Source: a virus. From it: a stretch of DNA of 64,000 nt. The notes beneath the pieces were generated by a model, which was not told the origin of the DNA, ran no database searches, and saw nothing but the letters and a program-made list of their open reading frames with translations. The translations under genes were made by a program, and so were the position numbers. Location of the stretch: positions 1 to 64,000 of IMG/VR virus record IMGVR_UViG_3300044681_000281. One strand, 5' to 3'. This document shows, one piece after another, positions 35,694 through 62,301 of this stretch (the stretch's first letter is position 1; every line of letters starts with the position of its first letter).

Positions 35694-35705
35694 ACTATAT
35701 AAATA

Positions 35706-35861
35706 TTATTTCGAGGGGTTTTCTAACTCAATAATTTTCTCGATATAATATCTTCTTAAATAGATGGGCATCTCCAACACATCCCTGTGGGAGAACCCTC
35801 TTTTTACGAGGTAAATCGTTTCTAAGTATTGTGAGGTCTTAGACTCCGTAGAAAGGCCGAA
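35706..35861 (-). CDS. Frameshift extension of the tail assembly chaperone (gpT/gp51-like)
   Basis: The +1 frame after TTT TTT CGG encodes FGLSTESKTSQYLETIYLVKRGFSHRDVLEMPIYLRRYYIEKIIELENPSK*. It fills the gap up to the tape measure promoter. Its first ATG is only about 20 codons from the stop. Confidence 0.7.
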   Translation of the reverse strand, partial: FGLSTESKTSQYLETIYLVKRGFSHRDVLEMPIYLRRYYIEKIIELENPSK

Positions 35862-36576
35862 AAAACTCCACCCCAAAGTCGATATTGAATGTGACTTTTT
35901 CTCCTGATGGGGCGATTGTGGTTTGTGTCAGATCGACACCGGGTTTAACTTTATTGACATATTTTCTGAAATTTTGAGAGTCTACAATTGGTAAAGTCTC
36001 TATAAAATTTCTAATGTTCATTGGATCGGGATTACCTTCCACTGATTTAATTAATTTCTCTAATCTTTTTGTAACGATTGGTGCGGTTCCTATACCATTC
36101 CAACTTTTATTGATTTGGTCGATTTCAATTTCATCTTTCTGTGTTAAAAAGTTGAATGTGATATGTTTCTTAGACTTCTCCATAAAATACGGATAGTTAC
36201 CATTCTCATCTTCTTTTAAATCAAATTCTTTATATGACAATTCTGACAAATCAACCGTATAATCAAAAAATTCATCTGTTTTTGGGTCCACGATCCTCAT
36301 GTTAAGGTCAGAACCAAACGCAGTGTTTCTTAAGAAAATAAGGATTGCTTGTCTATCCTCCAATGTTAAGTCCTCAACGGCTATCTCTTTTGTTAGAATT
36401 TTCCTTTTAAGGAGTTCATCAATTACATTACCACTCGCAACTAAGTTGGGTGAAGTTAGAATATTCTCATCTGATGCCGTTAAGTATGCAACTTTAACCG
36501 CCTTAGTTTTATTTGGGTAAAGAATACCCCTACTTGGTAGTTCTACTACATCATATTGTATTGTTGGATCTATCAT
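35839..36576 (-). CDS. Tail/baseplate hub assembly chaperone (T4 gp26/lambda gpG-like)
   Basis: VELPSRGILYP...YLTASDENIL...LEDRQAILIFLRNTAFG; lies between tube and tape measure; ends FFRP. Confidence 0.78.
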   Translation of the reverse strand: MIDPTIQYDVVELPSRGILYPNKTKAVKVAYLTASDENILTSPNLVASGNVIDELLKRKILTKEIAVEDLTLEDRQAILIFLRNTAFGSDLNMRIVDPKTDEFFDYTVDLSELSYKEFDLKEDENGNYPYFMEKSKKHITFNFLTQKDEIEIDQINKSWNGIGTAPIVTKRLEKLIKSVEGNPDPMNIRNFIETLPIVDSQNFRKYVNKVKPGVDLTQTTIAPSGEKVTFNIDFGVEFFRPFYGV

Positions 36577-36636
36577 ACTTTTTACTATAACATTTAAATT
36601 TAAAGAAATACCATTGGAAAGTAAAGGTTATTTCAT

Positions 36637-36660
36637 AAAAAAAGGGACCACAAGGGTCCC
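36637..36660 (-). terminator. Intrinsic terminator after the tail tube gene
   Basis: Minus strand reads GGGACC-CTTGT-GGTCCC-TTTTTTT. Confidence 0.78.
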
Positions 36661-36686
36661 CTATAAATACTAGACAGATTTTTTTA

Positions 36687-37175
36687 TTAGTAAACTTGGA
36701 TACATCTATCCATTCTCAATGAACAGTCAATAGTTGCCAAGGCATCGTTGTTGTAATCTAATTCGTTGAAGTTCAAATCAGTGATAAATGTTCCTTGTAG
36801 GATCCATTTTTCAACTACAACACCTGTTGGGTCTAACATCTCTAATTCGATATCTTTTTTATATCCCGCGGCGTAACCCATTCTACCTGTTACGGATTCT
36901 GCGTGTAATCTGAACCACTCCATCAACGCTTGTGATGCAGAAGGTCCAATTGGATCTTTGAATTTAACTCTTAGTTCATTCCATGTGAATCTACCAGCAA
37001 CATAAGTTGAAGTGTTCAAGAAAGGAATTTCAACACTGTTAATCTTCGCGCTAGGTCTAGCGGCCGATGTAACATACCACTCATTGATTCCCAATGAAGA
37101 AGGGAATCTAACAATGAATCGGTTAACTCTTTTCGGTTCGTAAGGAACCGGCATTTTCATTAATAAATCTGCCAT
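36687..37175 (-). CDS. Tail tube protein, T4 gp19-like
   Basis: YEPKRVNRF, ARPSAK, YVAGRFTW, YKKDIELEMLDPTGVVVEKWILQGTF, LDY; directly downstream of the sheath gene. Confidence 0.92.
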   Translation of the reverse strand: MADLLMKMPVPYEPKRVNRFIVRFPSSLGINEWYVTSAARPSAKINSVEIPFLNTSTYVAGRFTWNELRVKFKDPIGPSASQALMEWFRLHAESVTGRMGYAAGYKKDIELEMLDPTGVVVEKWILQGTFITDLNFNELDYNNDALATIDCSLRMDRCIQVY

Positions 37176-37258
37176 GTCTGTATATTTGTTATCTCAGTTA
37201 TTCTTTATTATAAATATATCTCTTTGAGAAATATTTTTTTATTTGTTTGGAAACTCGC

Positions 37259-37289
37259 TTGACATTGTCAAAAAATTTCCGTAAGTTTT
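37259..37289 (+). promoter_or_regulatory. Bacteroidota-type promoter (TTG-N20-TAAGTTTT) overlapped by the palindrome TTGACA-T-TGTCAA
   Basis: Same spacing as the promoters upstream of polB and the nuclease gene. Points opposite to the tail operon. Confidence 0.55.
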
Positions 37290-37291
37290 AT

Positions 37292-37424
37292 TTACCCAGT
37301 AAATACTAGAATAAATAATATTAGAAATTAATAATCTAGTATAAAATAACCAGTATAATACTGGGTGTCATCTCAATTTTTACTTTTGGATTGGGGGAGT
37401 CGTGAGACTCCCCTTTTCCTTTTT
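37292..37424 (+). ncRNA. Candidate small RNA (about 125 nt) in antisense orientation between the tube and sheath genes
   Basis: Promoter upstream. Nested stems ACCCAGTA/TACTGGGT and ATACTAGA/TCTAGTAT. No ATG. Ends in a + strand terminator. Confidence 0.5.
37394..37424 (+). terminator. Intrinsic terminator on the + strand
   Basis: GGGGAGTC-GTGA-GACTCCCC-TTTTCCTTTTT. The GNRA loop and U tract occur only on the + strand. Confidence 0.75.
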
Positions 37425-37432
37425 ATCATCTA

Positions 37433-40243
37433 TTAGATATTCTCAAATGATGCTCCTGTTGGAGTAATTAAGAATTCAACATCAATGAATTCCAATGCTC
37501 TTGTTGGTTTGATGTAAATCTTACCTCTTAAAGTATTTGCATCGATATCCTCTGGATCATTAGATACCGTTACACGGAACTCATATAAACCTCTTTCTTT
37601 CTTGATTGATTCCAAAATAGGATTAACCAATCTTAAGAATTCATTTCTTACTTGCTCGTCATTTTGTTCAAATAACAATCTCACGGCAACTGCCGAAATA
37701 AGTTTTCTTGCTCTTAACAACAATCTTCTTACGTTAATTCTATCAAGTGCGGATTCTCTAACCTGTAAGGTCTTGTTACCCCAAATGATTGTACCCGTAT
37801 CAGAGAATGTTGCGATTGGGTTAATTCTTGCTTTGTATAAATCATCTCTGTTATCCAAAGTAAGTTTTTTCTTCGCTTTAATTGCGTTTACTAAACCTCT
37901 TTGGTATCCTGCTACTGCGAACCAAGGATATGATACATTATCGGTCAACGCAATATTCTTAACAACCTCACCTGTTGGTGGAATGTATAATTGAGTTGCG
38001 TTATCCCCATCTCTTACTTGGATCCATGGCCAATATGTTGCGGTATAGTTGGTGTCCAAATCTACAGTATCCAATTGGTCAATGATTTCATCAACATTGT
38101 CAGTGTTAGGTGCGTTTACAATATAAAGTGAATCCGCTCTATCACCCTCAATCATATCGATTGTTTGATTTACCAAAGAACTGTGATTGTAGAAATCAAG
38201 ACCTGGAGTTGCGAAAATGTTAATATCAACCGACTCAGGATTAGAGAATGTCTCAATTGCCTGTAAGAACGCGTAGTAGTCAGAATTTCCAACTGAAGTA
38301 CTGAATACCCCACCATTAGTGGTTGTACCACTCACATATGTATTCTTACCGAAGATATAACCATCTCCATTCGTTCTGGTTCCTCTATAAATGTCCCATC
38401 CGTCAAAACCACCACATACTGCGAATGTGAATTTTCTGAATGATTTACTATCTAATTTTCCTTTATCATTTCCTTCCAAATCATAAGGTGTTGTTTTAAA
38501 CCCTAATGAAGATGCATTTGATGATAAGTGGAATCCGTGTGATGCAACATTTGCACTCACCCCTTTAAATTGGAATAAGTCAGAATCGAAACCAATTTGA
38601 GATGAAAGACCTAAAGAAACCTTTCTAACTTTATCTCCATTGGTTAATTCAGGATTTCCTAATGAGTCAAAGGCAATAGTATCACCCGCATCAAAATATT
38701 GGGTTTTATATAGAACATTACCAATTTTAGAACCGACACCTAAACTATCGGCAGTAAAACCTTTGAATCCCGCAGGAAATGCATCGATTGGGTGTTCTTC
38801 AGCCATGTTCAACATAACATATTTAGAACGTAACTCATATTCACCGTCTGAAGTACCGATTTTTCTTGCGATATAACCAGGTAGGTCAGGGTTCATAGAA
38901 CATCTGGAAAATTTCTCTAAAACAACAACATTATCGTCTGAATCATTAAAGTCTCTAACGATCACATCAAATTCACCCGTTTCAATGTCAATGTTTTGAA
39001 TCATTAACTTAACCTGTGTGTTTGCGGCATTACCATCAGAGATACTAATAACACTAAATAAGTCTGAAACTGCACCACCTCTCACTTCAGATACAACCGT
39101 TGGAGATGCTGGGGTTTCCCACTGACTTAAGAAGTCGTTTGAAACATTATGATATACAAGATCAGTACTTAAACCTCTAACTAAACCTAAAGAATATAAA
39201 GATTTTAATAAGTTAGGGTACTCCTCAAATACGTAGACAGGGAAATCGGATCTTTTCTTATCGAAAACATCCCCACCCAATACCTTGGTGATGTACTTTG
39301 TGGATGTCATATCCATTGTACATGTAAATGATTTAACACCACTAGTTGATCCATTTGCACTTATTACAAATTCACCCATTGGGTTAGAAGCGATAGTAGA
39401 AGAAGAAAGGGTTAAATCACCATTATTAGTTATTTCTAAATCTAAGGTCTCACCACTATACGCACCTCTAGATCTTAGGGCCGCGATAACAATACCATCG
39501 TAATCCTCATTCACTTCGGCAACGTACTCAAATTGAGTGATTGTCCAACCTGTGGAGGTTCCGTCGTAAACGAACAGATATGAATAGACACCGTCGATTA
39601 CACCCAACCCATTTTCTTTAAAGTAGAAATTGTACCAATTATTCTCCACATTGGAACCAATAGGACCTGTTTCTTCTAAAGAATCATTTAAAGGTGCTGT
39701 AGTGTTAGGGTCAACGTAACCAATTGTAAACCACGTTCCATCTTGTACCGTGATTGAATTGATATAGTCAGGAACTGAATTACCGTCAGTTGCGGTTTTA
39801 TTATTTAAATCACCAATGAATGATGATGTTGAGATGTTAGTAGTCGCACCGGTTAACGTTTCAGTGATACCTGTAACCAAATTAGTGGTATCTACAGTGA
39901 TACCCCCCAAAGTCTTTATTGCGAAAGTCTTTAAAGGCTTGTATCCTGTTAAACCTAAAACTCTCGTCACAAAAAGTTGATTTGATTCTTGTAAGTATGA
40001 TTTTGCCACGTAACCTAACTCATACTTAGGATTACCATCCGAGTATTTCGCAGGTGAAGTAGGACCAAAATATGTTTTGAACTCATCAAAATTTCTTATT
40101 AAAATAGGTTCGAATGCGGGACCTTGAATAGTCTCACCCGCCAAACCTAGTGTAGTTACACCCACACTTTGCGCTACGAACGTTAAATCCTTCTCTGATG
40201 TGTAGACACCTGGAGAAACGAATACTCTGTTTGAATTTGCCAT
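37433..40243 (-). CDS. Contractile tail sheath protein, T4 gp18-like
   Basis: FVSPGVYTSEKDLT, YWPW, PWFAVAGYQRG, RINPIATF, IWGNKTLQ, RINVRRLL, IKPTRALEFI. Confidence 0.96.
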   Translation of the reverse strand: MANSNRVFVSPGVYTSEKDLTFVAQSVGVTTLGLAGETIQGPAFEPILIRNFDEFKTYFGPTSPAKYSDGNPKYELGYVAKSYLQESNQLFVTRVLGLTGYKPLKTFAIKTLGGITVDTTNLVTGITETLTGATTNISTSSFIGDLNNKTATDGNSVPDYINSITVQDGTWFTIGYVDPNTTAPLNDSLEETGPIGSNVENNWYNFYFKENGLGVIDGVYSYLFVYDGTSTGWTITQFEYVAEVNEDYDGIVIAALRSRGAYSGETLDLEITNNGDLTLSSSTIASNPMGEFVISANGSTSGVKSFTCTMDMTSTKYITKVLGGDVFDKKRSDFPVYVFEEYPNLLKSLYSLGLVRGLSTDLVYHNVSNDFLSQWETPASPTVVSEVRGGAVSDLFSVISISDGNAANTQVKLMIQNIDIETGEFDVIVRDFNDSDDNVVVLEKFSRCSMNPDLPGYIARKIGTSDGEYELRSKYVMLNMAEEHPIDAFPAGFKGFTADSLGVGSKIGNVLYKTQYFDAGDTIAFDSLGNPELTNGDKVRKVSLGLSSQIGFDSDLFQFKGVSANVASHGFHLSSNASSLGFKTTPYDLEGNDKGKLDSKSFRKFTFAVCGGFDGWDIYRGTRTNGDGYIFGKNTYVSGTTTNGGVFSTSVGNSDYYAFLQAIETFSNPESVDINIFATPGLDFYNHSSLVNQTIDMIEGDRADSLYIVNAPNTDNVDEIIDQLDTVDLDTNYTATYWPWIQVRDGDNATQLYIPPTGEVVKNIALTDNVSYPWFAVAGYQRGLVNAIKAKKKLTLDNRDDLYKARINPIATFSDTGTIIWGNKTLQVRESALDRINVRRLLLRARKLISAVAVRLLFEQNDEQVRNEFLRLVNPILESIKKERGLYEFRVTVSNDPEDIDANTLRGKIYIKPTRALEFIDVEFLITPTGASFENI

Positions 40244-40364
40244 CGATTACTTTAGTTATTATTTTTTTATTGTTTTACTATAAATATCTTTGTTTTTATG
40301 AAAGATTTCGGGACTTTTTTATTTCGGAATATTTAAAGATCTTTTTTTATCCATATTTATCTTT

Positions 40365-40523
40365 ATGGATAATACGAAAACCAAAAACGTTAAAATCAGT
40401 GTTAAACACCATGAAAAGTTGAAATCCTATTGTGATGACAATGGATTTAAATTATATAAGGTGATAGAAAAGTGGATTGATCAGAATTGTACTGACAGAA
40501 AACGTAACCTCTATAATGAATAG
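40365..40523 (+). CDS. Small ribbon-helix-helix DNA-binding protein (52 aa)
   Basis: Below the ORF-track cutoff. MDNTKTKNVKISVKHHEKLKSYCDDNGFKLYKVIEKWIDQNCTDRKRNLYNE* has a beta-strand, helix, G, helix pattern. TATTTAT lies 4 nt upstream. Confidence 0.68.
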   Translation: MDNTKTKNVKISVKHHEKLKSYCDDNGFKLYKVIEKWIDQNCTDRKRNLYNE

Positions 40524-42329: not shown

Positions 42330-44081
42330 ATGGGAAATAACATACCTGAAATAGAGGCAAGAGAAATAGTGACAGGTTATACGGGTTTTAATAACCAAAT
42401 CCTTGAATGGAAGAGGAAATTTGAAACTGTCAAAAATTTTGGTCTTACTCGACCACAATCCGATTATGTACTAAAATATTGGCAAACCGAACCTAAAGTT
42501 GCGAGGAAATACCTTTCTATCGCAAAACATTTTGGTGCCAAGTTACAGGAAGAGAGACTCTTAATGAAACCCGTAGAAGAGGTTTGGGTTGAAAAGTTAC
42601 TTTGTGAAAGTGATAAGGCATATCATATATGGGGAAACCTAACTAAAGAGATGAAACCCATCCCTATGTGGTTACCAAAGGCATCCATAATTCAAGAGGA
42701 GAAAACATTAGATAGGGTAATAGATTACACTCCATATTCTAAAAGACCTCCTATGGAGCACCAAAAGATTGCGATCGAAAAATTATTGGCTAACGATAGG
42801 TTTATCCTCGCAGACGACATGGGACTTGGTAAAACAACTAGTACAGTCATTGCATCTATGGAAAGTGGTGCAAAGAAAGTGTTGATTGTTTGTCCTGCGT
42901 CACTTAAAATCAATTGGAAAAGAGAGATTGAGAATTACTCTGATGACTACATTCTCGTAGTTGAAGGTAAGAAATGGGGATCCACCTTCAAATACTACAT
43001 AATTAACTACGATATCCTTAAAAATTTCCATACTACAGAGAATAGTGAGGAAAGTGAAGCGTATCAGATTATAGTCAACGAAGGGTTCGATCTTGCGATT
43101 GTGGATGAGGCACATTATATTTCTAATAGTCAGGCACAAAGAACCAAACTATTAAATGATATACTTGCCAAAATTCCTAAAGTTTGGTTACTCACAGGGA
43201 CACCAATGACTTCGAGACCTATAAACTACTACAACCTTCTTAAAATCGTAAACTCCCCATTAACCCTAAATTGGAAAAGTTATGTAATGAGGTATTGTAA
43301 GGGATACCAATTCAGGGTTGGAGGTAGAAAGATATGGAACACGAGTGGTGCAAGTAATTTGGATGAACTAAGGGAACAAACTAAAGGTATTGTTCTAAGG
43401 AGATTAAAAACCGATATTTTAGATCTTCCTGAAAAAATAATCTCCCCAATATGGTTAGAACTTAAAAACTCATTCTACGATGACGAATTGACCGAATTCT
43501 TAAGGTTAAGTGAAGAAAATAAAGATAAGGAGAGTATAACGGTTACCCTTAATAGATTAATGAAGTTACGTCAATTAATCGCGATCGAAAAGGTTGAACA
43601 CACCTGTGAACTAATTGATAAAGTATTGGAACAAGACAGAAAGGTAATCGTCTTTACTAATTTCACCATGTCTTTAGACATGTTACACGAACGTTACAAG
43701 AAGAAATCCGTTGTCTTAGATGGAAGAATGTCTAAGGACAGAAGACAAGAGTCGGTAGATAGATTTCAAAACGAGGATAAGGTTAAAATATTTATCGGAA
43801 ACATTAAAGCTGCGGGTGTGGGAATCACCTTAACCGCAGCAGATACCGTTATAATGAATGACTTATCATTTGTACCCGCAGATCATTCCCAAGCGGAAGA
43901 TAGGGCATATAGATATGGTCAAAAAAATAGTGTTCTTGTTTACTACCCTGTGTTTGAAAACACAATAGAAATGACAATATATAACATCCTACAAAAGAAG
44001 AAGGATGTGATCGATCAAGTTATGGGTGATGGTGAGTACTCAGAAAGTTTCGCGAGTGAGTTAGTCAAAAGTATTAAGTAA
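42330..44081 (+). CDS. SNF2-family helicase/translocase (SMARCAL1/HepA-like)
   Basis: LADDMGLGKT, VDEAH, LTGTP, GITLTAA, QAEDRAYRYGQ. ATG start at 42330. Confidence 0.92.
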   Translation: MGNNIPEIEAREIVTGYTGFNNQILEWKRKFETVKNFGLTRPQSDYVLKYWQTEPKVARKYLSIAKHFGAKLQEERLLMKPVEEVWVEKLLCESDKAYHIWGNLTKEMKPIPMWLPKASIIQEEKTLDRVIDYTPYSKRPPMEHQKIAIEKLLANDRFILADDMGLGKTTSTVIASMESGAKKVLIVCPASLKINWKREIENYSDDYILVVEGKKWGSTFKYYIINYDILKNFHTTENSEESEAYQIIVNEGFDLAIVDEAHYISNSQAQRTKLLNDILAKIPKVWLLTGTPMTSRPINYYNLLKIVNSPLTLNWKSYVMRYCKGYQFRVGGRKIWNTSGASNLDELREQTKGIVLRRLKTDILDLPEKIISPIWLELKNSFYDDELTEFLRLSEENKDKESITVTLNRLMKLRQLIAIEKVEHTCELIDKVLEQDRKVIVFTNFTMSLDMLHERYKKKSVVLDGRMSKDRRQESVDRFQNEDKVKIFIGNIKAAGVGITLTAADTVIMNDLSFVPADHSQAEDRAYRYGQKNSVLVYYPVFENTIEMTIYNILQKKKDVIDQVMGDGEYSESFASELVKSIK

Positions 44082-45158
44082 CTCTTCCAAACAAGTTCTC
44101 AGTTCCTTTTCAATGGACTCCAAGTCGACATTATTAAAACCAATGAGAACTTCCTTCTTTTCCTTATTAAATTGTACGTAAGGTTCATAAGAATCAAAAA
44201 TCTCAAACGAATACTCCAATTTTATACACCGATAGAATATGGACATTAAAATTTCAGTATTCTCGTCTATAACCTTATCATAAACGTTTTCTAATCTTTC
44301 ATTAGGGATGATTGTCTGAGACCCCTCAACAATTATAGTTTCGTCCTCATTAATACCATCGATATTAAACTCGTAAATCGTCCCGTTATTCTCCACAATT
44401 AAGTAGTTAATAGTCGAGTGTTTACGTTTGTTTATTTCAATAGGTATAATAACCGTATCATTTTCATCATCTAAAACGACTCTTTGGACATAGTCTTTAT
44501 TATCGTTACATCGTTTGTGTTGATACGTGTATTCGATACCGTCCTTTTTTATAATGAAGTCAACACCCTTATTATAGTCGTCACCATCACCCCTATCCTT
44601 ACCATAAAGGGTTTCATAAGGTTTATCCTTAATAACATATCTAACATAGGATAATTCTGAAAAGATTGAACCGTACCATGTCTGTGCCGTTGCGACAGAA
44701 AGTTTACGTGATAATTCTGTCGACTCATAAAGACCAAAAACCCTATCGAAATACTTGTCGATAAAGTCCATAAGTCTATCACAACTTTCATTAAAAAAAT
44801 TACTTAGACTGTGATAGGTCAATAATTCACCCGTTATTCTCCCCTTTTTAATTAAGTCGTTATAGAAATTCAATAAAACTAAAATGGCGCTTTGGTTGGT
44901 TTCAATGGTGTTTATGTAGGACCATTTCCATTCACCATTTATATTTTGCCATACCCCCCATTTAGGTCTCCTATTGTAAAAATCCCAAACACCCTCGTTT
45001 TCATCAAATTTAAAATTCACCCCATCATATTGGTACTTTGAGATGATTTTGTTTAACGATGTGATGAAATAACCCTTATTCGTTTTATCATTAAGGAAAA
45101 TCAATTTAACCTGACCGAGATCTAATTTAATATTTCTTTTTAATTTCTGTATATCCAT
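44061..45158 (-). CDS. Putative PD-(D/E)xK-fold endonuclease
   Basis: E...D-x4-GVDFIIKKDGIEYTYQHK resembles the D-x(n)-Q-x-K variant active site. Has its own host-type promoter. Confidence 0.5.
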   Translation of the reverse strand: MDIQKLKRNIKLDLGQVKLIFLNDKTNKGYFITSLNKIISKYQYDGVNFKFDENEGVWDFYNRRPKWGVWQNINGEWKWSYINTIETNQSAILVLLNFYNDLIKKGRITGELLTYHSLSNFFNESCDRLMDFIDKYFDRVFGLYESTELSRKLSVATAQTWYGSIFSELSYVRYVIKDKPYETLYGKDRGDGDDYNKGVDFIIKKDGIEYTYQHKRCNDNKDYVQRVVLDDENDTVIIPIEINKRKHSTINYLIVENNGTIYEFNIDGINEDETIIVEGSQTIIPNERLENVYDKVIDENTEILMSIFYRCIKLEYSFEIFDSYEPYVQFNKEKKEVLIGFNNVDLESIEKELRTCLEELLNTFD

Positions 45159-45180: not shown

Positions 45181-45211
45181 CAAATATAAACTATTTATAG
45201 TAATAAATCAA
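45181..45211 (-). promoter_or_regulatory. Bacteroidota sigma-70 promoter TTG-N20-TATATTTG for the nuclease gene
   Basis: Exact TAnnTTTG -7 box with TTG 20 nt upstream. Overlaps the divergent TATTTAT motif of the neck gene. Confidence 0.68.
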
Positions 45212-45213
45212 GT

Positions 45214-46332
45214 ATGGCAAGTACAATCATCACACCAACGAATAAGGATAAGTTATATTCTCAGGTTTATCATCTGTTAGGGATGCCTATTAGGTCAGTT
45301 GAACTGACTGAGGAACAGATGGATACATTCCTCGAGTTAGCCCTCGATGAATATGAACAATATGTAAGTGATTGGTTAATTGAGTCACAATGGTCGTCTT
45401 TAGCTGGGTTAGACGTTGACACCCAATCCCTAACAAGGGCATTCACGACAAGGTCGTTAGACTATGAGACACAATATTCTCACGCTTATTCGAAAATAGT
45501 TGGTTTACAGGCAGGTGGAGATTCAATACTTAAAAAGGATAAGATAGAACTTATACCTAATCAACAAGTTTATGAAATCCCCGCGGGTCGTGAAATCAAT
45601 GAACTACTTTGGTTTACGAGAGCCGAACTTACTGATTCTATTGTTGATCCATTTTTAGGTGGATTTGGTGGTCTTGGTGGTGTAGGTTTTGGTGGTGTGG
45701 GAGGTTTTGCACAGATGGGGACATCTGGTTCATACTTTATGTTACCCGCGTATGATCTTTTAGCACGTATGCAGGATAGAAACATTAAGAACCGATTAAT
45801 CGGTGGTGAGTTGACTTACCGTGTAACGGCAGGTCCTGAAGGTAAAAAATACGTTCACCTTTACAACGTACCCGGAGGTAGATTTGATTTCGGTTCCATC
45901 CAACAACACAACCATTATGTATGGTATTGGTATTATGACACATTGGATAGGGACGATTGTTTAGAAAAAAATAAAGATGTTGTAAAGTTACCTTCAGACA
46001 TTGCTACCGAAGAATTGACATGGGAAACACTTAACAAACCCGCACAGAATTGGGTGAGAAAGTATCTTATTGCTTATTCTAAGGAGGGGTTAGGTAGAAT
46101 CTATTCTAAATTCTCGGGTGACCTACAAGTACCTGATAGTCAGGTTAAATTAGATTATAGTTCCCTTTTAACAGAAGGTAAAGATGAGAAATTAAAACTT
46201 ATTGAGGAGTTAACTCAAAGGTTAGAAAGATTACGTCCTGATAAGATGTTAGAGAGAAAAGGAAACGAGGCCGAAAATTTAAACAAATCTTTAAAGTATC
46301 GACCTATACAGTCACCTTTTAATATGATCTAA
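45214..46332 (+). CDS. Neck/head-tail adaptor protein (T4 gp13-like)
   Basis: LLGMPIRSVELTEEQMDTFLELALDEY...WVRKYLIAYSKEGLGRIYSKF..L..P...LDY..LL.EG..E...L.EEL. Confidence 0.85.
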   Translation: MASTIITPTNKDKLYSQVYHLLGMPIRSVELTEEQMDTFLELALDEYEQYVSDWLIESQWSSLAGLDVDTQSLTRAFTTRSLDYETQYSHAYSKIVGLQAGGDSILKKDKIELIPNQQVYEIPAGREINELLWFTRAELTDSIVDPFLGGFGGLGGVGFGGVGGFAQMGTSGSYFMLPAYDLLARMQDRNIKNRLIGGELTYRVTAGPEGKKYVHLYNVPGGRFDFGSIQQHNHYVWYWYYDTLDRDDCLEKNKDVVKLPSDIATEELTWETLNKPAQNWVRKYLIAYSKEGLGRIYSKFSGDLQVPDSQVKLDYSSLLTEGKDEKLKLIEELTQRLERLRPDKMLERKGNEAENLNKSLKYRPIQSPFNMI

Positions 46333-49223
46333 TAATCTCTATCATCTGTGTGATAGGCAAAATCCCTACCGTTAGTTTCAATTATTTCATCACTATTGGA
46401 TATTGTTGATGGTTTTTTAAATTCCACAACTTCTCTATTGGTTTGGACCCAATAAGGGTCAACATAATTGATACTATCCTCTAAATACATGAAGTAAGGG
46501 TCCCTCTTTACCTTATTCCAAAAAAGAACTTCACTGTCCGATAAGGTCATAACCTCATCATACTTATCTTGTCCATCTTCCTTCATTGGGAAACCCGATA
46601 CCAAATCACACTGACTTTTAGTAAAGAATGGTCTGTTTGCGGGATCCTCAATTAAAATCTCATTACGTATTTCGGGGTGGAACACCACCAACAACGGTTC
46701 AATCCTTTTATTAAAGGTGTTGATGTAACGAGCAACATTATAATCCCCCTTCATATCGGGGTTCTCTTCTAATTCTTTCTCGGTCACCATAAAACAATTG
46801 ATTTTTACATAATCAGGAGGAATGGGTACTCCGTGTTCCTGAAAATACTCTTCTTGTTGTTTTTTGGTTGGTTTGGTGATCTTTTGCACATCACCATCAC
46901 TTTTCTTTTCACCATTATTGACATAGTAGATCGTTTCCCCTAAACCCGCAGGATAATCATTCAACATGATTAATTCCATGTGTGCTTGTCGAGACATAAG
47001 AGAACCACTTTTAGTTCTCTTTTTCATGTGTTTCTTATAGTCCTCAACACTTTGTTTAACCCTCGATTTATTAGCGATCTTAGATAATGGGATTTGTTTG
47101 TTAAAGATGAGGTCGATATATCTATAATATACCTCTAAAAATTCCTGTCCCTTACCATCGAGTAATAATTCTAACCCCTCATCAAAAAAGTCAACAATAT
47201 AACCATGTAAGTTCTTTGATTTAATGGTGTTACCTGTCAACTTTAATCCACCACTTGGTTTTTTAAGGACGTAGTTTTTACGTGCGAAGTTAACCGTCGC
47301 GGGTGCGACGTAATCAATATCTAACCCCATCTCATTTCTCATGAATATGTCGTTAAATTCGGCAGTATCCGCCTCGGCACCCGTGTAAACTTTACCCTCT
47401 TCGACCAACTCATTTAAACCCTTACCGATATATTGACGCTCATCGACATTTTCGGGACACGAGAAATTCACACCATCCGTATCCATAACCAATGGTTTGT
47501 ATCCGCGTTCTTTAAAGAACATGATCATCATACGTAAACATTGTCTACCCACACATGTGATTGTTTCACCCATATCCATATCACCCCATGGAAAGACTTG
47601 TGGTGCGGATAAGGAACCGAAATATGCGTTAATAAAGATTTTAATGGGTAATTGTTTACGATCGTATTTCTCCGATAACTCAGGATCACTTTTCTTGTAT
47701 TGACCCGCCAACTTCTTATACTTAATACGAACATCACGGAAATACTTCAACATCGACTTTTGTACCCCCATAACATCACAATCAGGGAATACATCATAAA
47801 CCAACTGAATGGATGGGTAAAGAGAAGAATAGTCAAACTTAACTACATTAGTCGAATACCCAACAGTAAGAAGTCGTGATAATCCACCTGTAATTGCTCG
47901 TCTATCCTGTTTCTCAGGTACCGCTAAACCGTGTTTATATGACCACGCCAACATAATAAGTTTCCAAAGAGTAGCTGTACCCATGGTGGATATACGTTCG
48001 TAAGTGGTTGGTACCAACTTAGAAAGTAAGAAAGTTGATTGTGAGAATGAATCATCGACAACCATAGTTTCATACAAGTCATCGTCAAGATACTGTTCCA
48101 CAATCTTACGACCTGTCCAAACTTCGAACTTACCCGGATACCTCTCTAATAATCCTTCGGTCCCTTTCTCACCTATTTTTTTATAGTTACCTGTCTTTGG
48201 ATTGACATAATAACTTTCATTCTCGAGATATATTTTAGAAATCCATGCACCATCCACATAAACTCGATTCTCTTTCTCCGCACCTAAGTACTTGGTAATG
48301 TACTTCAACCCCCAAGACTTAATCTCTGAATTGATGGCTTGTGCCCTACGGACGGCATGTGCAATATCGAGAATGTTCATACCCCATATCATGTGTTGAG
48401 TGTAGTCCTCAATTTCATTGGCGAGTTTAAGAATACCCTCTCGTTGTTTCATACCTTGATCTACAAAGACCTTAGTGTGTTCTTCAACATTAATACCTAA
48501 TATTTCGGCACGCTTTAAAATAAATGGGAAGTCAAAGAACGCGGAGTTGTATCCCGCAAAAATCGTTGGTTTTAATTCTTTAACATATTCAAAGAATTCT
48601 ATAATACAATTCTTCTCACCATCCTCCCCAAATGCACTGATAATCTTTATAAAATCACGATTATCCTTCATTCCAATAAGAATAATCTTGTCGGTTTCAG
48701 GATCCAAACCAGTGGTCTCGATATCGAATACTAAACGATGTACATCCTCATATTCTTCAATACCCTTAAAAAGACGTTTTTCTTTTTGGATTAGGTATTG
48801 TTCTTTAGGGTTCAGTAAGATAAAATGATGTTTTACTTTATCATCCCACGGATTTATTCCTCCTTGTCTAAAAAAACCTAAAAGTTCTTTATAACCTTTA
48901 GTACTCTTTACTAGGTAGTTAAAACCATTAGATAAACGTTCATTACCCTGATCTTCTAATTTTTCGATTATAATACCGTACTCCAACATTTTCTTCTTTT
49001 GGAGTGCTTTACTACCGTTATAAAAATTTAATTCTGTAATATCATCAACCCACAGGAATGGGGTTAACTTATCTGACCGAATGATTTTACCCTTCTCGGG
49101 GTGTTGAATAATTTTGTAGATGGTATTAGAACTATATTCGTATTCAATACCTGTTATGTACTCTTCGGGATCCGCACCATTAAGGAACTCCTCAATGACC
49201 TCTTGGGAAATTATTTCTCTCAT
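46329..49223 (-). CDS. Family B DNA polymerase with 3'-5' exonuclease
   Basis: ExoI FDIETTG, ExoII GYNSAFFDFPFI, PolA DYSSLYPS, PolB KIFINAYFG, PolC MDTDG. Confidence 0.95.
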   Translation of the reverse strand: MREIISQEVIEEFLNGADPEEYITGIEYEYSSNTIYKIIQHPEKGKIIRSDKLTPFLWVDDITELNFYNGSKALQKKKMLEYGIIIEKLEDQGNERLSNGFNYLVKSTKGYKELLGFFRQGGINPWDDKVKHHFILLNPKEQYLIQKEKRLFKGIEEYEDVHRLVFDIETTGLDPETDKIILIGMKDNRDFIKIISAFGEDGEKNCIIEFFEYVKELKPTIFAGYNSAFFDFPFILKRAEILGINVEEHTKVFVDQGMKQREGILKLANEIEDYTQHMIWGMNILDIAHAVRRAQAINSEIKSWGLKYITKYLGAEKENRVYVDGAWISKIYLENESYYVNPKTGNYKKIGEKGTEGLLERYPGKFEVWTGRKIVEQYLDDDLYETMVVDDSFSQSTFLLSKLVPTTYERISTMGTATLWKLIMLAWSYKHGLAVPEKQDRRAITGGLSRLLTVGYSTNVVKFDYSSLYPSIQLVYDVFPDCDVMGVQKSMLKYFRDVRIKYKKLAGQYKKSDPELSEKYDRKQLPIKIFINAYFGSLSAPQVFPWGDMDMGETITCVGRQCLRMMIMFFKERGYKPLVMDTDGVNFSCPENVDERQYIGKGLNELVEEGKVYTGAEADTAEFNDIFMRNEMGLDIDYVAPATVNFARKNYVLKKPSGGLKLTGNTIKSKNLHGYIVDFFDEGLELLLDGKGQEFLEVYYRYIDLIFNKQIPLSKIANKSRVKQSVEDYKKHMKKRTKSGSLMSRQAHMELIMLNDYPAGLGETIYYVNNGEKKSDGDVQKITKPTKKQQEEYFQEHGVPIPPDYVKINCFMVTEKELEENPDMKGDYNVARYINTFNKRIEPLLVVFHPEIRNEILIEDPANRPFFTKSQCDLVSGFPMKEDGQDKYDEVMTLSDSEVLFWNKVKRDPYFMYLEDSINYVDPYWVQTNREVVEFKKPSTISNSDEIIETNGRDFAYHTDDRDY

Positions 49224-49287: not shown

Positions 49288-49319
49288 CAAATATAAGAAA
49301 AAATAATGAAAATATCAAA
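49288..49319 (-). promoter_or_regulatory. Bacteroidota sigma-70 promoter TTTG-N20-TATATTTG for the DNA polymerase
   Basis: Exact match to the Bacteroidota -33 TTTG / -7 TAnnTTTG consensus. Confidence 0.75.
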
Positions 49320-54612: not shown

Positions 54613-54625
54613 TCTTATAAATATT

Positions 54626-57485: not shown

Positions 57486-57524
57486 TATTATAAATATCTT
57501 TCTTAACATTTGATATTTATAATA
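57486..57524. promoter_or_regulatory. Divergent pair of TATTTAT late-promoter-like motifs forming a 13-bp inverted repeat
   Basis: TATTATAAATATC-N13-GATATTTATAATA between the divergent ATGs at 57483 and 57537. Confidence 0.7.
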
Positions 57525-61022: not shown

Positions 61023-61054
61023 TTGATTTCATCACTTTTTTTTCTTATATTTTG
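61023..61054 (+). promoter_or_regulatory. Bacteroidota-type promoter TTG-N20-TATATTTTG for the glycosyltransferase-to-phoH block
   Basis: Near-consensus, with the same 20-nt spacing as the polB promoter. Confidence 0.55.
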
Positions 61055-61071
61055 ATATATAACAAAAATAT

Positions 61072-62301
61072 ATGTCAAAAGTTAGAGTACTTGCCGTTCC
61101 GTCCGATTCGCACGGTGTCGGTAAATTCAGAATGATAGATCCATTTACCTACATTGGAGATAATTTCTCAGACGAGGTACATGTTGATATCGTTTTTGAT
61201 GTACCTAATGAAGATTCCTATTTCCACAACTACGATATTGTGGTCTTCCATTCTTTCATACATAAATTAAGTCACGAAGAAAATATCGAAAGAATTAAGT
61301 GGTTAAAAACGAATGGAATTAAGGTTGTAGTAGATACCGACGACTTTTGGAAAATTGATCATCGTCACCCCAATTACGAGACATTTAAAAAAATCGAGTT
61401 ACCAAGAAGAAGGGCGGAACTAATTAAGTTGGCCGATTATGTGACAACTACAACCGAAGTTTATTCGAACACAATTAAAACTCTTCTAAATAGAAGTAAT
61501 GTTTTTGTCTTCCCCAATGCAGTTAACGAAAAAGAATCTCAGTTTCAACCCAAACCAATTAAATCGGATAAAATTAGGTTCGGTTGGTTAGGGGGATCCT
61601 CTCATTATCATGATTTGGATCTTATTAGAGGGGGGATAAATTTGATTCAAAATCAGTATCCTGATAAGTCTCAATTTGTTCTATGTGGTTTTGATCTTAG
61701 AGGTAATATGAGAGAGATTAATAAAATTACCGGTGAGATAAAAGAAAGACCAATTAGACCCGAAGAAACCGTATGGGTTAAATACGAGGAGATTTTTACA
61801 CAAAATTACAGATCTTTAGACACTGATTATATTAATCACCTAAAGTCATTCACCCCAAACCCACATCCCGACGAACTTAATAAACCATATGTTCGTAGAT
61901 GGACTATGGATATTAACAAATATGCAACTAACTACAACTATTTTGATGTTTCATTGGCACCATTAGTGAATAGTGATTTCAATAAAAATAAATCACAGTT
62001 AAAGGTTATTGAGGCGGGGTTCCATAAAAAGGCAATAATCGCCACGGCGGAAAATCCTTACCTATTAGATTTGGTTAGTGGGTATGAAAATGGTAAATTC
62101 ACAGATAATGGAAATGGTCTTTTAGTGCAATCATCTAAAAACCATAAACAGTGGCATCAACACATGAAAAGATTAATTGATAATCCTTCATTAATTGAAG
62201 ATTTGGGTAATCGATTATATGAAACGGTAAAAGACAAGTATTCCCTCTCTACCGTTTCCAAAAATAGAGTGGAATTCTTAAAATCAATCATTAATAATTA
62301 A
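61072..62301 (+). CDS. Glycosyltransferase (GT-B fold, GT4-like)
   Basis: GVGKFRMIDP, VVVDTDDFW, ADYVTTTT, FPNAV, FGWLGGSSHYHDL, DVSLAPL..SDFNKNKSQLKVIEAG, NGLLV. Confidence 0.85.
   Translation: MSKVRVLAVPSDSHGVGKFRMIDPFTYIGDNFSDEVHVDIVFDVPNEDSYFHNYDIVVFHSFIHKLSHEENIERIKWLKTNGIKVVVDTDDFWKIDHRHPNYETFKKIELPRRRAELIKLADYVTTTTEVYSNTIKTLLNRSNVFVFPNAVNEKESQFQPKPIKSDKIRFGWLGGSSHYHDLDLIRGGINLIQNQYPDKSQFVLCGFDLRGNMREINKITGEIKERPIRPEETVWVKYEEIFTQNYRSLDTDYINHLKSFTPNPHPDELNKPYVRRWTMDINKYATNYNYFDVSLAPLVNSDFNKNKSQLKVIEAGFHKKAIIATAENPYLLDLVSGYENGKFTDNGNGLLVQSSKNHKQWHQHMKRLIDNPSLIEDLGNRLYETVKDKYSLSTVSKNRVEFLKSIINN

Follow-up and report, generated by a model that had tools for sequence, protein, structure and literature searches.

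The locus described here raises the question of what a 257-bp gap without a gene does between the tail sheath and tail tube genes of a contractile-tailed phage. The window, that is, the whole stretch analysed, comprises 64,000 nucleotides (nt; positions 1 to 64,000) of the IMG/VR virus record IMGVR_UViG_3300044681_000281, a 75-kb fragment with 36.5% G+C, and contains the structural gene region of the phage, with its genes on the - strand. The sheath-tube gap is the longest intergenic gap of the contig except for one of 286 bp that holds a small + strand gene. Sequence comparison indicates that this spacer is a conserved, single-copy control module without a gene, and one that is very probably functional. 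As to its role, we tentatively put first a transcription-activated DNA-unwinding site or replication origin, like oriF, oriG and oriE of phage T4. The components of the spacer and the genes that enclose it are as follows (aa, amino acids).

36687-37175, - strand: tail tube gene, 162 aa; phrog_4542 tail tube (E 2.4e-24), with a weak match to PF06841 (T4 gp19)
37209-37217, - strand: tube late promoter ATATTTATA; boundary of the module, outside the putative antisense unit
37259-37289, + strand: promoter-like bipartite motif TTGAC-N16-CGTAAGTTTT (TTG-N20-TAnnTTTT), which in the window reads TTG-N20-TAAGTTTT; TTG at 37259-37261 and -7-like box at 37282-37289, 20 nt apart
37259-37271: palindrome TTGACATTGTCAA (TTGACA-T-TGTCAA), containing the -33 part of the motif
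37294-37366, no strand assigned: AT-rich inverted-repeat array with five C[CT]AGTA/TACT[AG]G motifs and a core of pure A/T
37294-37301 and 37359-37366: outer stem of the array, ACCCAGTA pairing with TACTGGGT
37303-37313 and 37332-37342: inner stem of the array (ATACTAGA/TCTAGTAT), ATACTAGAATA pairing with TAATCTAGTAT
37350-37364: alternative hairpin CCAGTAT-A-ATACTGG
37367-37392, no strand assigned: invariant block GTCATCTCAATTTTTAC(TTTTGGATT) between array and hairpin, predicted to be unpaired
37393-37424, + strand: GC hairpin GGGGAGTC-GTGA-GACTCCCC (37394-37413) followed by a T-run (37414-37424); predicted intrinsic terminator of the + strand only
37433-40243, - strand: tail sheath gene, 936 aa; phrog_23 tail sheath (E 2.6e-61), PF04984 and PF17482; its stop codon adjoins the module

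An earlier note on this stretch had described a promoter-like element on the + strand with a palindrome over its -33 box, nested inverted repeats with an alternative hairpin, and an 8-bp GC stem with a GTGA loop and a U tract working on the + strand only, all of it between the sheath and tube genes and without an open reading frame (ORF). This anatomy was recovered in full at the positions listed. There is no ORF of at least 30 aa between 37176 and 37432, and the predicted RNA contains no ATG; a small ORF starting at a gene-strand ATG in the invariant block was considered and rejected because a 1-nt indel among relatives shifts its frame. The recurrence of the array motifs and the fold score exceed chance expectation. 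Five of the 20 C[CT]AGTA/TACT[AG]G sites of the 75-kb contig fall within 70 bp of the array, and the TTGAY-N3-RTCAA palindrome has its single site in the contig here.

Conservation was assessed in related uncultured phages, which supplied 102 distinct sheath-tube spacers with lengths of 244-1078 bp. The window's own clade contributes 31 of these, 11 collected via the tube protein and 20 more via a 17-mer of the invariant block, and the block is identical in both groups. Genome-level tests used a 183-kb contig (G001) and a complete genome of 310 kb (G002), both from related phages. The lineage is well represented in metagenomes: more than 590 IMG/VR contigs encode a tube protein with 86-100% identity, some of these contigs exceed 300 kb, and genome sizes reach about 310 kb. 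Among cultured phages, blastn against 50,697 phage records gave no DNA match, and the nearest tube proteins, from Microcystis phage Mel-JY01 and Flavobacterium phage immuto, are 34-40% identical. Since the sheath-tube gaps of cultured relatives measure only 45 bp and 94 bp, the module appears to be a lineage-specific addition. A search for tRNA and tmRNA genes found none.

The promoter-like motif is the most constant part of the spacer. TTG-N20-TAnnTTT, pointing away from the tube gene and with a fixed inner spacing of 20 nt, is present in 99 of the 102 distinct spacers, and an alignment made independently of the motif singled out TTG, TA and TTT as its most conserved columns, while both 'nn' positions varied. 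The tube late promoter ATATTTATA is kept in all relatives; its distance to the motif ranges from 25 to 48 nt or more. Because the inner spacing is fixed and the distance to the late promoter is variable, the palindrome goes with the -7-like box rather than with the late promoter. The motif persists in L076 and in the L340 clade, where the palindrome is absent. In most spacers the array begins 0-12 nt past the motif. A promoter on the gene strand starting from TTGACA was also considered and rejected, no conserved -10 element being found 16-18 nt downstream.

The consensus promoter of Bacteroidota consists of TTTG at -33 and TAnnTTTG at -7; in F. johnsoniae promoters, G-5 is near-invariant and G is virtually absent from -10 and -9 (PMC6847099). 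The spacer motif shares with promoters of the Bacteroidota housekeeping sigma factor the TTG placed 19-21 nt before the -7 box (20 nt in the window) and the bases T-12, A-11, T-8, T-7 and T-6 of that box (TAAGTTTT in the window); it is promoter-like, although non-canonical in features that are weighed below, and no gene lies downstream of it. The canonical type is in use in these phages. In G002, 37 of the 81 TTG-N19-21-TAnnTTTG sites are intergenic, with intergenic DNA making up 11.5% of the genome; 25 of the 37 have a gene start within 200 nt, and many lie in one early region on one strand. G001 likewise uses this promoter type. Its polB promoter, TTGAT-N16-CGTATATTTG, shares an extended TTGAY-N16-CGTA pattern with the spacer motif. 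A separate promoter class 'CGTAnnTTTT' was considered, and only few further cases turned up, among them the G001 polB promoter and one gene-proximal site in G001. A generic scan for sigma-70-type promoters called no more sites than in shuffled sequence and is therefore uninformative for this host type. On balance, a real antisense promoter is somewhat more likely than not.

The TAnnTTTG type corresponds to the Bacteroidota consensus and agrees with a host in the Flavobacteriaceae. The sole match among species-representative bacterial genomes was a sequence of 248,233 bp (L361, CBFHJJ010000001.1) binned in a metagenome-assembled genome of Flavobacteriaceae, and its tube protein is 96% identical. 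This sequence is probably a phage genome binned together with its host, and the host of the phage lineage is probably a member of the Flavobacteriaceae.

A second promoter type is represented by ATATTTATA, a single A/T-rich 9-mer without a -35 part. It is the late promoter motif of the phage, and its seven copies in the 75-kb contig each lie 3-35 nt before the start of a gene on the same strand. Relative to the T4 late motif TATAAATA it is the reverse complement and not the identical sequence; both are devoid of a -35 part. The promoters of either type, and two genes mentioned with them, are located as follows.

49288-49318, - strand: host-type polB promoter, TTG-N20-TAnnTTTG, with the same geometry as the spacer motif
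46329-49223, - strand: polB gene
45181-45211, - strand: host-type promoter before the gene at 44061-45158
61023-61053, + strand: host-type promoter with a ...TTTT ending, before a glycosyltransferase-like gene at 61072-62301
35698-35706, 37209-37217, 40279-40287 (sheath), 54616-54624 and 57489-57497, - strand: copies of ATATTTATA
57513-57521 and contig positions 73265-73273, + strand: further copies of ATATTTATA
35839-36576, - strand: baseplate hub gene

Past the end of the window, at contig positions 67191-67892 (L360:7191-7892), a protein of 233 aa gives a weak match to Sigma70 region 2 (E 0.0018, under the Pfam cut-off) and is possibly a phage sigma factor. Upstream of it, a clear PhoH-like protein (E 1.3e-63) is encoded at contig positions 63737-64435 (L360:3737-4435), its start lying inside the window.

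Downstream of the motif, base composition is conserved and sequence is not. The element has a median length of 113 bp and 79% A+T in the relatives (82% in the window array), and its content changes from clade to clade among CTAG/CCAG inverted repeats, TAGCAA/TTGCTA stems, GGTCC/GGACC units and plain AT-rich DNA. Other clades carry direct TCTAGTT repeats or 16 direct copies of an 8-nt TTAGTA unit, and even in the window's clade the hairpin interior alternates between CTAG-type and TAGCAA/TTGCTA-type stems. The array is also the site of the least stable 60-bp duplex both in the 75-kb contig (start 37300) and in the 310-kb genome G002. Among the relatives, insertions and repeat expansions make the spacer a hot spot. 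In one spacer (L077:1040-1780, - strand), a gene for a YkuD L,D-transpeptidase (E 8.9e-16) has been inserted antisense between array and hairpin. Another holds tandem arrays of 12 units of 15 nt and 8 units of 14 nt (L292, 991-1296), together with a truncated resolvase N-terminal domain (L292:603-893, + strand, E 1.3e-12).

Another conserved feature of the spacers is the GC hairpin behind the sheath stop codon, at which the module ends; in the window its orientation differs from that of other terminators. Its stem of 8-9 bp is GC-rich and varies with compensation, the variants GGGGAGTC, GGGGGTTC, GGAGGAAC and GGGGAGATAC all preserving pairing. The terminator scan called it at 37393-37414 on the + strand only, where the stem is followed by the U-tract (TTTCCTTTTT / TTTTCCTTTTT); the tail on the - strand is CAATCCAAAAG. 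In all 31 spacers of the window's clade, an A-run precedes the hairpin on the gene strand and no T-run follows it; in other clades the hairpin is bidirectional. Three other terminators of the window are canonical on the gene strand, and the sheath hairpin is the exception. This polarity suggests that + strand transcripts may reach the hairpin. The argument is weakened, however, by the A-rich composition of both hairpin flanks on the gene strand. It is weakened further by two spacers (L099 and L006) that are otherwise identical and carry the hairpin in exactly inverted orientation (GGGAGGGTCTTACGACTCTCCC versus its reverse complement), so that either orientation is tolerated; the difference between them is a small DNA inversion at a palindrome.

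These features may be combined as follows. A host-type (Bacteroidota) promoter with the geometry of the polB promoter, overlapped by a palindromic operator, would fire away from the tube gene; transcription would directly enter a very AT-rich, fast-evolving repeat array; the transcript would open or prime this AT-rich element, perhaps as an R-loop or a primer from which replication might initiate; and the hairpin at the sheath end would halt the transcript before antisense entry into the sheath gene. An unwinding site is suggested because the promoter and the AT-rich, meltable, repetitive character of the array are conserved, and the sequence and fold of the RNA are not: the element is A+T-rich, easily melted and free to vary in sequence between clades. 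The earlier note had raised a transcription-primed origin as an alternative to a small RNA, and such an origin fits the data at least as well.

The closest precedents come from T4. Its minimal oriF and oriG comprise about 100 bp, with a pre-late promoter directly ahead of an A+T-rich unwinding element that can be replaced by heterologous unwinding sequences; oriE combines an early promoter with iterons found in syntenic positions in relatives, the role of the repeats being undefined (PMC3016281). The spacer resembles oriF and oriG in that a module of about 100-200 bp places a promoter-like motif ahead of an A+T-rich element of exchangeable sequence. It differs in that the T4 promoters depend on MotA, whereas the motif here is of the Bacteroidota -33/-7 type without the final G, and in having short repeats, bounding inverted repeats and a terminator, with no shift in composition or divergence of transcription. 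With oriE it shares a promoter, a predicted one in the spacer, without need of a phage factor beside short direct repeats, syntenic in related phages. Unlike in oriE, the repeats measure 6-16 nt, are often inverted and vary by clade from 0 to 21 copies, and no repE-like genes were identified adjoining the module.

Several observations weigh against an origin or unwinding site driven by a host-type promoter. The final G-5 of the -7 box is not present as a rule: the window has T at this position, as do 92 of 99 spacers, with C in 6 and G in 1. G does occur at the positions that Flavobacterium promoters keep virtually free of it, at -9 in the window (TAAGTTTT) and at -10 or -9 in 39 relatives with TAGTTTTT or TAGCTTTT. 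The T-ending form is not enriched in the intergenic DNA of G002 (12 of 118 sites). The minimum of duplex stability is only marginal, at -57.5 kcal/mol compared with -58.1 kcal/mol for other AT-rich intergenic stretches. GC skew, which the earlier note had proposed as a check for an origin, shows no shift at the spacer and follows gene orientation, both in the window and in the cumulative curve of G002; likewise, skew at third codon positions (GC3) is equal in the co-oriented genes to the left and right of the spacer (p = 0.51). The site lies within a co-oriented block of genes, whereas T4 origins tend toward transcriptional divergence. Finally, small-RNA genes more typically show what is found here, namely a discrete terminator (130-230 nt downstream) preceded by a block that is invariant and unpaired.

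A rival candidate for an origin was the set of 66-bp tandem repeats at a strand switch near 231 kb in G002, which proved to be a CRISPR-like array. At 231,090-231,560 (L274:11090-11560) there are 7 to 8 repeats of 36 nt (GTTGTTACTTATATTAATTCGCAAGGAAATCACAAC), some of them slightly diverged, with unique spacers of about 30 nt.

A cis-antisense small RNA, as the earlier note had proposed, is an alternative that we rate as only slightly less probable. Such an RNA, about 130 nt long in the window and 130-230 nt in relatives, would start at the base of the long hairpin and end at the terminator. It would be fully complementary to the 3' region of the sheath mRNA or to sheath-to-tube read-through, and would bring about cleavage or termination of these transcripts or act in trans via the invariant unpaired block. 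The promoter-like motif, the hairpin and the + strand T-run make up a complete unit without an ORF, with the array beginning so close to the -7 box in most spacers that the base of the hairpin lies at about +1. Because the sheath hairpin of the window's clade lacks a T-run on the gene strand, gene-strand read-through into the array is likely there, and only + strand transcripts would meet a canonical terminator. That strand is in use in the spacer with the antisense YkuD insertion. Rapid turnover of the array does not argue against a small RNA, since the sequence of a cis-antisense RNA need not be conserved in its own right. The + strand T-run, however, could reflect base composition, given the A-rich hairpin flanks, and the -7 box with T instead of G-5 and, in the window, G at -9 is again non-canonical. 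Since the late promoter of the tube gene lies downstream of the module, an mRNA of the tube gene alone would have no overlap with this putative RNA.

All 31 sequences of the window's clade share one fold, in which a long hairpin is followed by about 20 nt of unpaired invariant block and then by the terminator, and the 134-nt stretch is far more stable than shuffled sequence (z = -5.8). The opposite strand reaches z = -5.9, so that folding is unable to assign a strand, and across the spacers the antisense strand is the more stable in 26 and the sense strand in 39, a difference that is not significant. The fold is not family-wide either: five spacers carry few motifs or none, and in eight there are no repeats other than direct ones. 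RNAalifold on a MAFFT alignment gave no consensus for the array, and of the other elements it retrieved just the palindrome and a portion of the terminator. What is kept in most clades is the stem base CCCAGTA/TACTGGG, that is, only part of the nested stems. Three two-sided changes at this base constitute the sole covariation evidence for the array: ACCCGGTA/TACCGGGT (L099 and L006, with the adjacent CCAGTA copy unchanged), GCCCAG/CTGGGC (L076) and TCCCAG/CTGGGA (L051).

A scan of 36000-39000 on both strands with Rfam 15 (E up to 10) returned only chance-level hits, the best, on the terminator hairpin, reaching 25 bits against a threshold of 80 bits, and no credible trans candidate for the invariant block emerged from 75 kb plus 184 kb of phage sequence. 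In other clades the block is replaced by a GTTCCACGTGGAAC palindrome, which occurs once in the 310-kb G002 and varies without compensation, as in GCTCCACGTAGAAC. The proposal of a small RNA made by the host polymerase thus finds partial support, in the promoter spacing (99 of 102 spacers) and the T-run (31 of 31), and not in the nested stems, which are conserved at their base only, nor in any strand bias of the fold. The covariation analysis that the earlier note had recommended across related spacers was similarly divided, with two-sided changes at the stem base and an unconserved interior. As for the conservation on which the note had let its proposal stand or fall, the promoter and, within the clade, the terminator orientation are conserved, and the stems beyond their base are not; on this count the proposal is not refuted.

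Phages do make RNAs of this kind: OOP of lambda and sar of P22 are cis-antisense RNAs with a promoter and a terminator of their own. Like them, the module is a short unit without an ORF that opposes its flanking genes, has a promoter(-like motif) and an intrinsic terminator and is complementary to the end of a neighboring mRNA. It differs in that OOP and sar overlap coding or ribosome-binding regions of regulatory genes, while the spacer is an intergenic 3' region between structural genes; in addition, its fold is not conserved throughout the family and its transcription is only predicted.

Less probably still, and in our estimate unlikely, the spacer is a DNA control region to which proteins bind and which yields no functional antisense transcript, its repeats and palindromes serving as operators for phage DNA-binding proteins. 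Proteins coating the spacer would then block read-through from the sheath gene, or time or boost the late promoter of the tube gene. The distribution of motifs is suggestive of this: YYAGWA occurs at 24 per kb in the spacers compared with 4-5 per kb genome-wide, in 0-21 copies whose successive starts, overlapping matches aside, are mostly 6-9 nt or 15 nt apart, and its use in both orientations agrees with binding by a protein that reads double-stranded DNA. Elsewhere in the G002 genome CTAG is depleted five-fold (0.57 per kb compared with 2.7 expected), and the sheath-tube spacer holds its only CTAG cluster, with 7 in 150 bp, the next best having 3; restriction avoidance or a site-specific binding protein could account for this pattern. 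The palindromes that flank the array are perfect, occur nowhere else in the genomes checked and change without compensation. The identity of the repeated motif is inconstant, however, being TAGCAA/TTGCTA or GGTCC/GGACC in some clades and missing from others, and array and palindrome keep a fixed distance to the -7-like box and a variable one to the late promoter that they would regulate. Operators would also leave unexplained why the conserved columns have the TA-nn-TTT profile of a promoter.

A candidate binder of the array is encoded 3 kb away, just upstream of the sheath gene and antisense to the tail genes (40365-40523, + strand). It is a ribbon-helix-helix protein of 52 aa (PF10723 RepB-RCR_reg, E 8.3e-5, above the Pfam cut-off) that is conserved among relatives with 56-85% identity. 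Upstream of its gene, two direct ATTTCGG repeats and a AAAGATCTTT palindrome were noticed by eye. Ribbon-helix-helix repressors such as omega of pSM19035 and MetJ bind arrays of 7-8-bp repeats, and the spacer array is similar to theirs in its short direct or inverted repeats of variable number near promoters, with a ribbon-helix-helix gene nearby. It is dissimilar in the irregular identity and spacing of its repeats and in that protein and array do not covary: no covariation of the DNA-contacting beta-strand with array type was found, and the binder is only a candidate.

An ordinary spacer, in which a sheath terminator and a tube late promoter surround neutral, slippage-prone AT-rich DNA and the promoter likeness is coincidental or the remnant of a lost antisense gene, would account for the insertions and expansions in L077 and L292, the high variability of array content and the 45-94 bp gaps with which cultured relatives manage, but is improbable given that none of the 102 distinct variants is shorter than 244 bp and that the motif and its spacing, like the flanking blocks and the CCCAGTA boundary of the array, vary little or not at all amid diverging surroundings.

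A more specific proposal, and one we regard as a long shot, builds on a transcription-activated opening of the array. In T4, late transcription is activated by the sliding clamp, which is loaded at a nearby nick or primer-template junction. By analogy, the antisense promoter and array might serve to load the late-transcription machinery between the two tail genes with the highest expression, with an RNA primer or R-loop acting as a sequence-encoded clamp-loading 'enhancer' for the tube and neighboring late promoters. If true, this would make late gene output depend on early transcription and on the local opening of the DNA.

For annotation, the sheath hairpin of one clade would have to be read as a terminator of the opposite strand, and the structural gene region of this family as one that appears to mix host-type (TTG-N20-TAnnTTTG) and late (ATATTTATA) promoters. 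The lineage is abundant and uncultured, and the module offers one compact, conserved, single-copy non-coding site at which a role in its replication start or its late-gene control may be tested. Its approximately 100 natural variants, in which the motif is fixed and the downstream element ranges from a palindrome to an array of direct repeats, form a series from which the true requirements of an unwinding element or of an antisense RNA could be learned.

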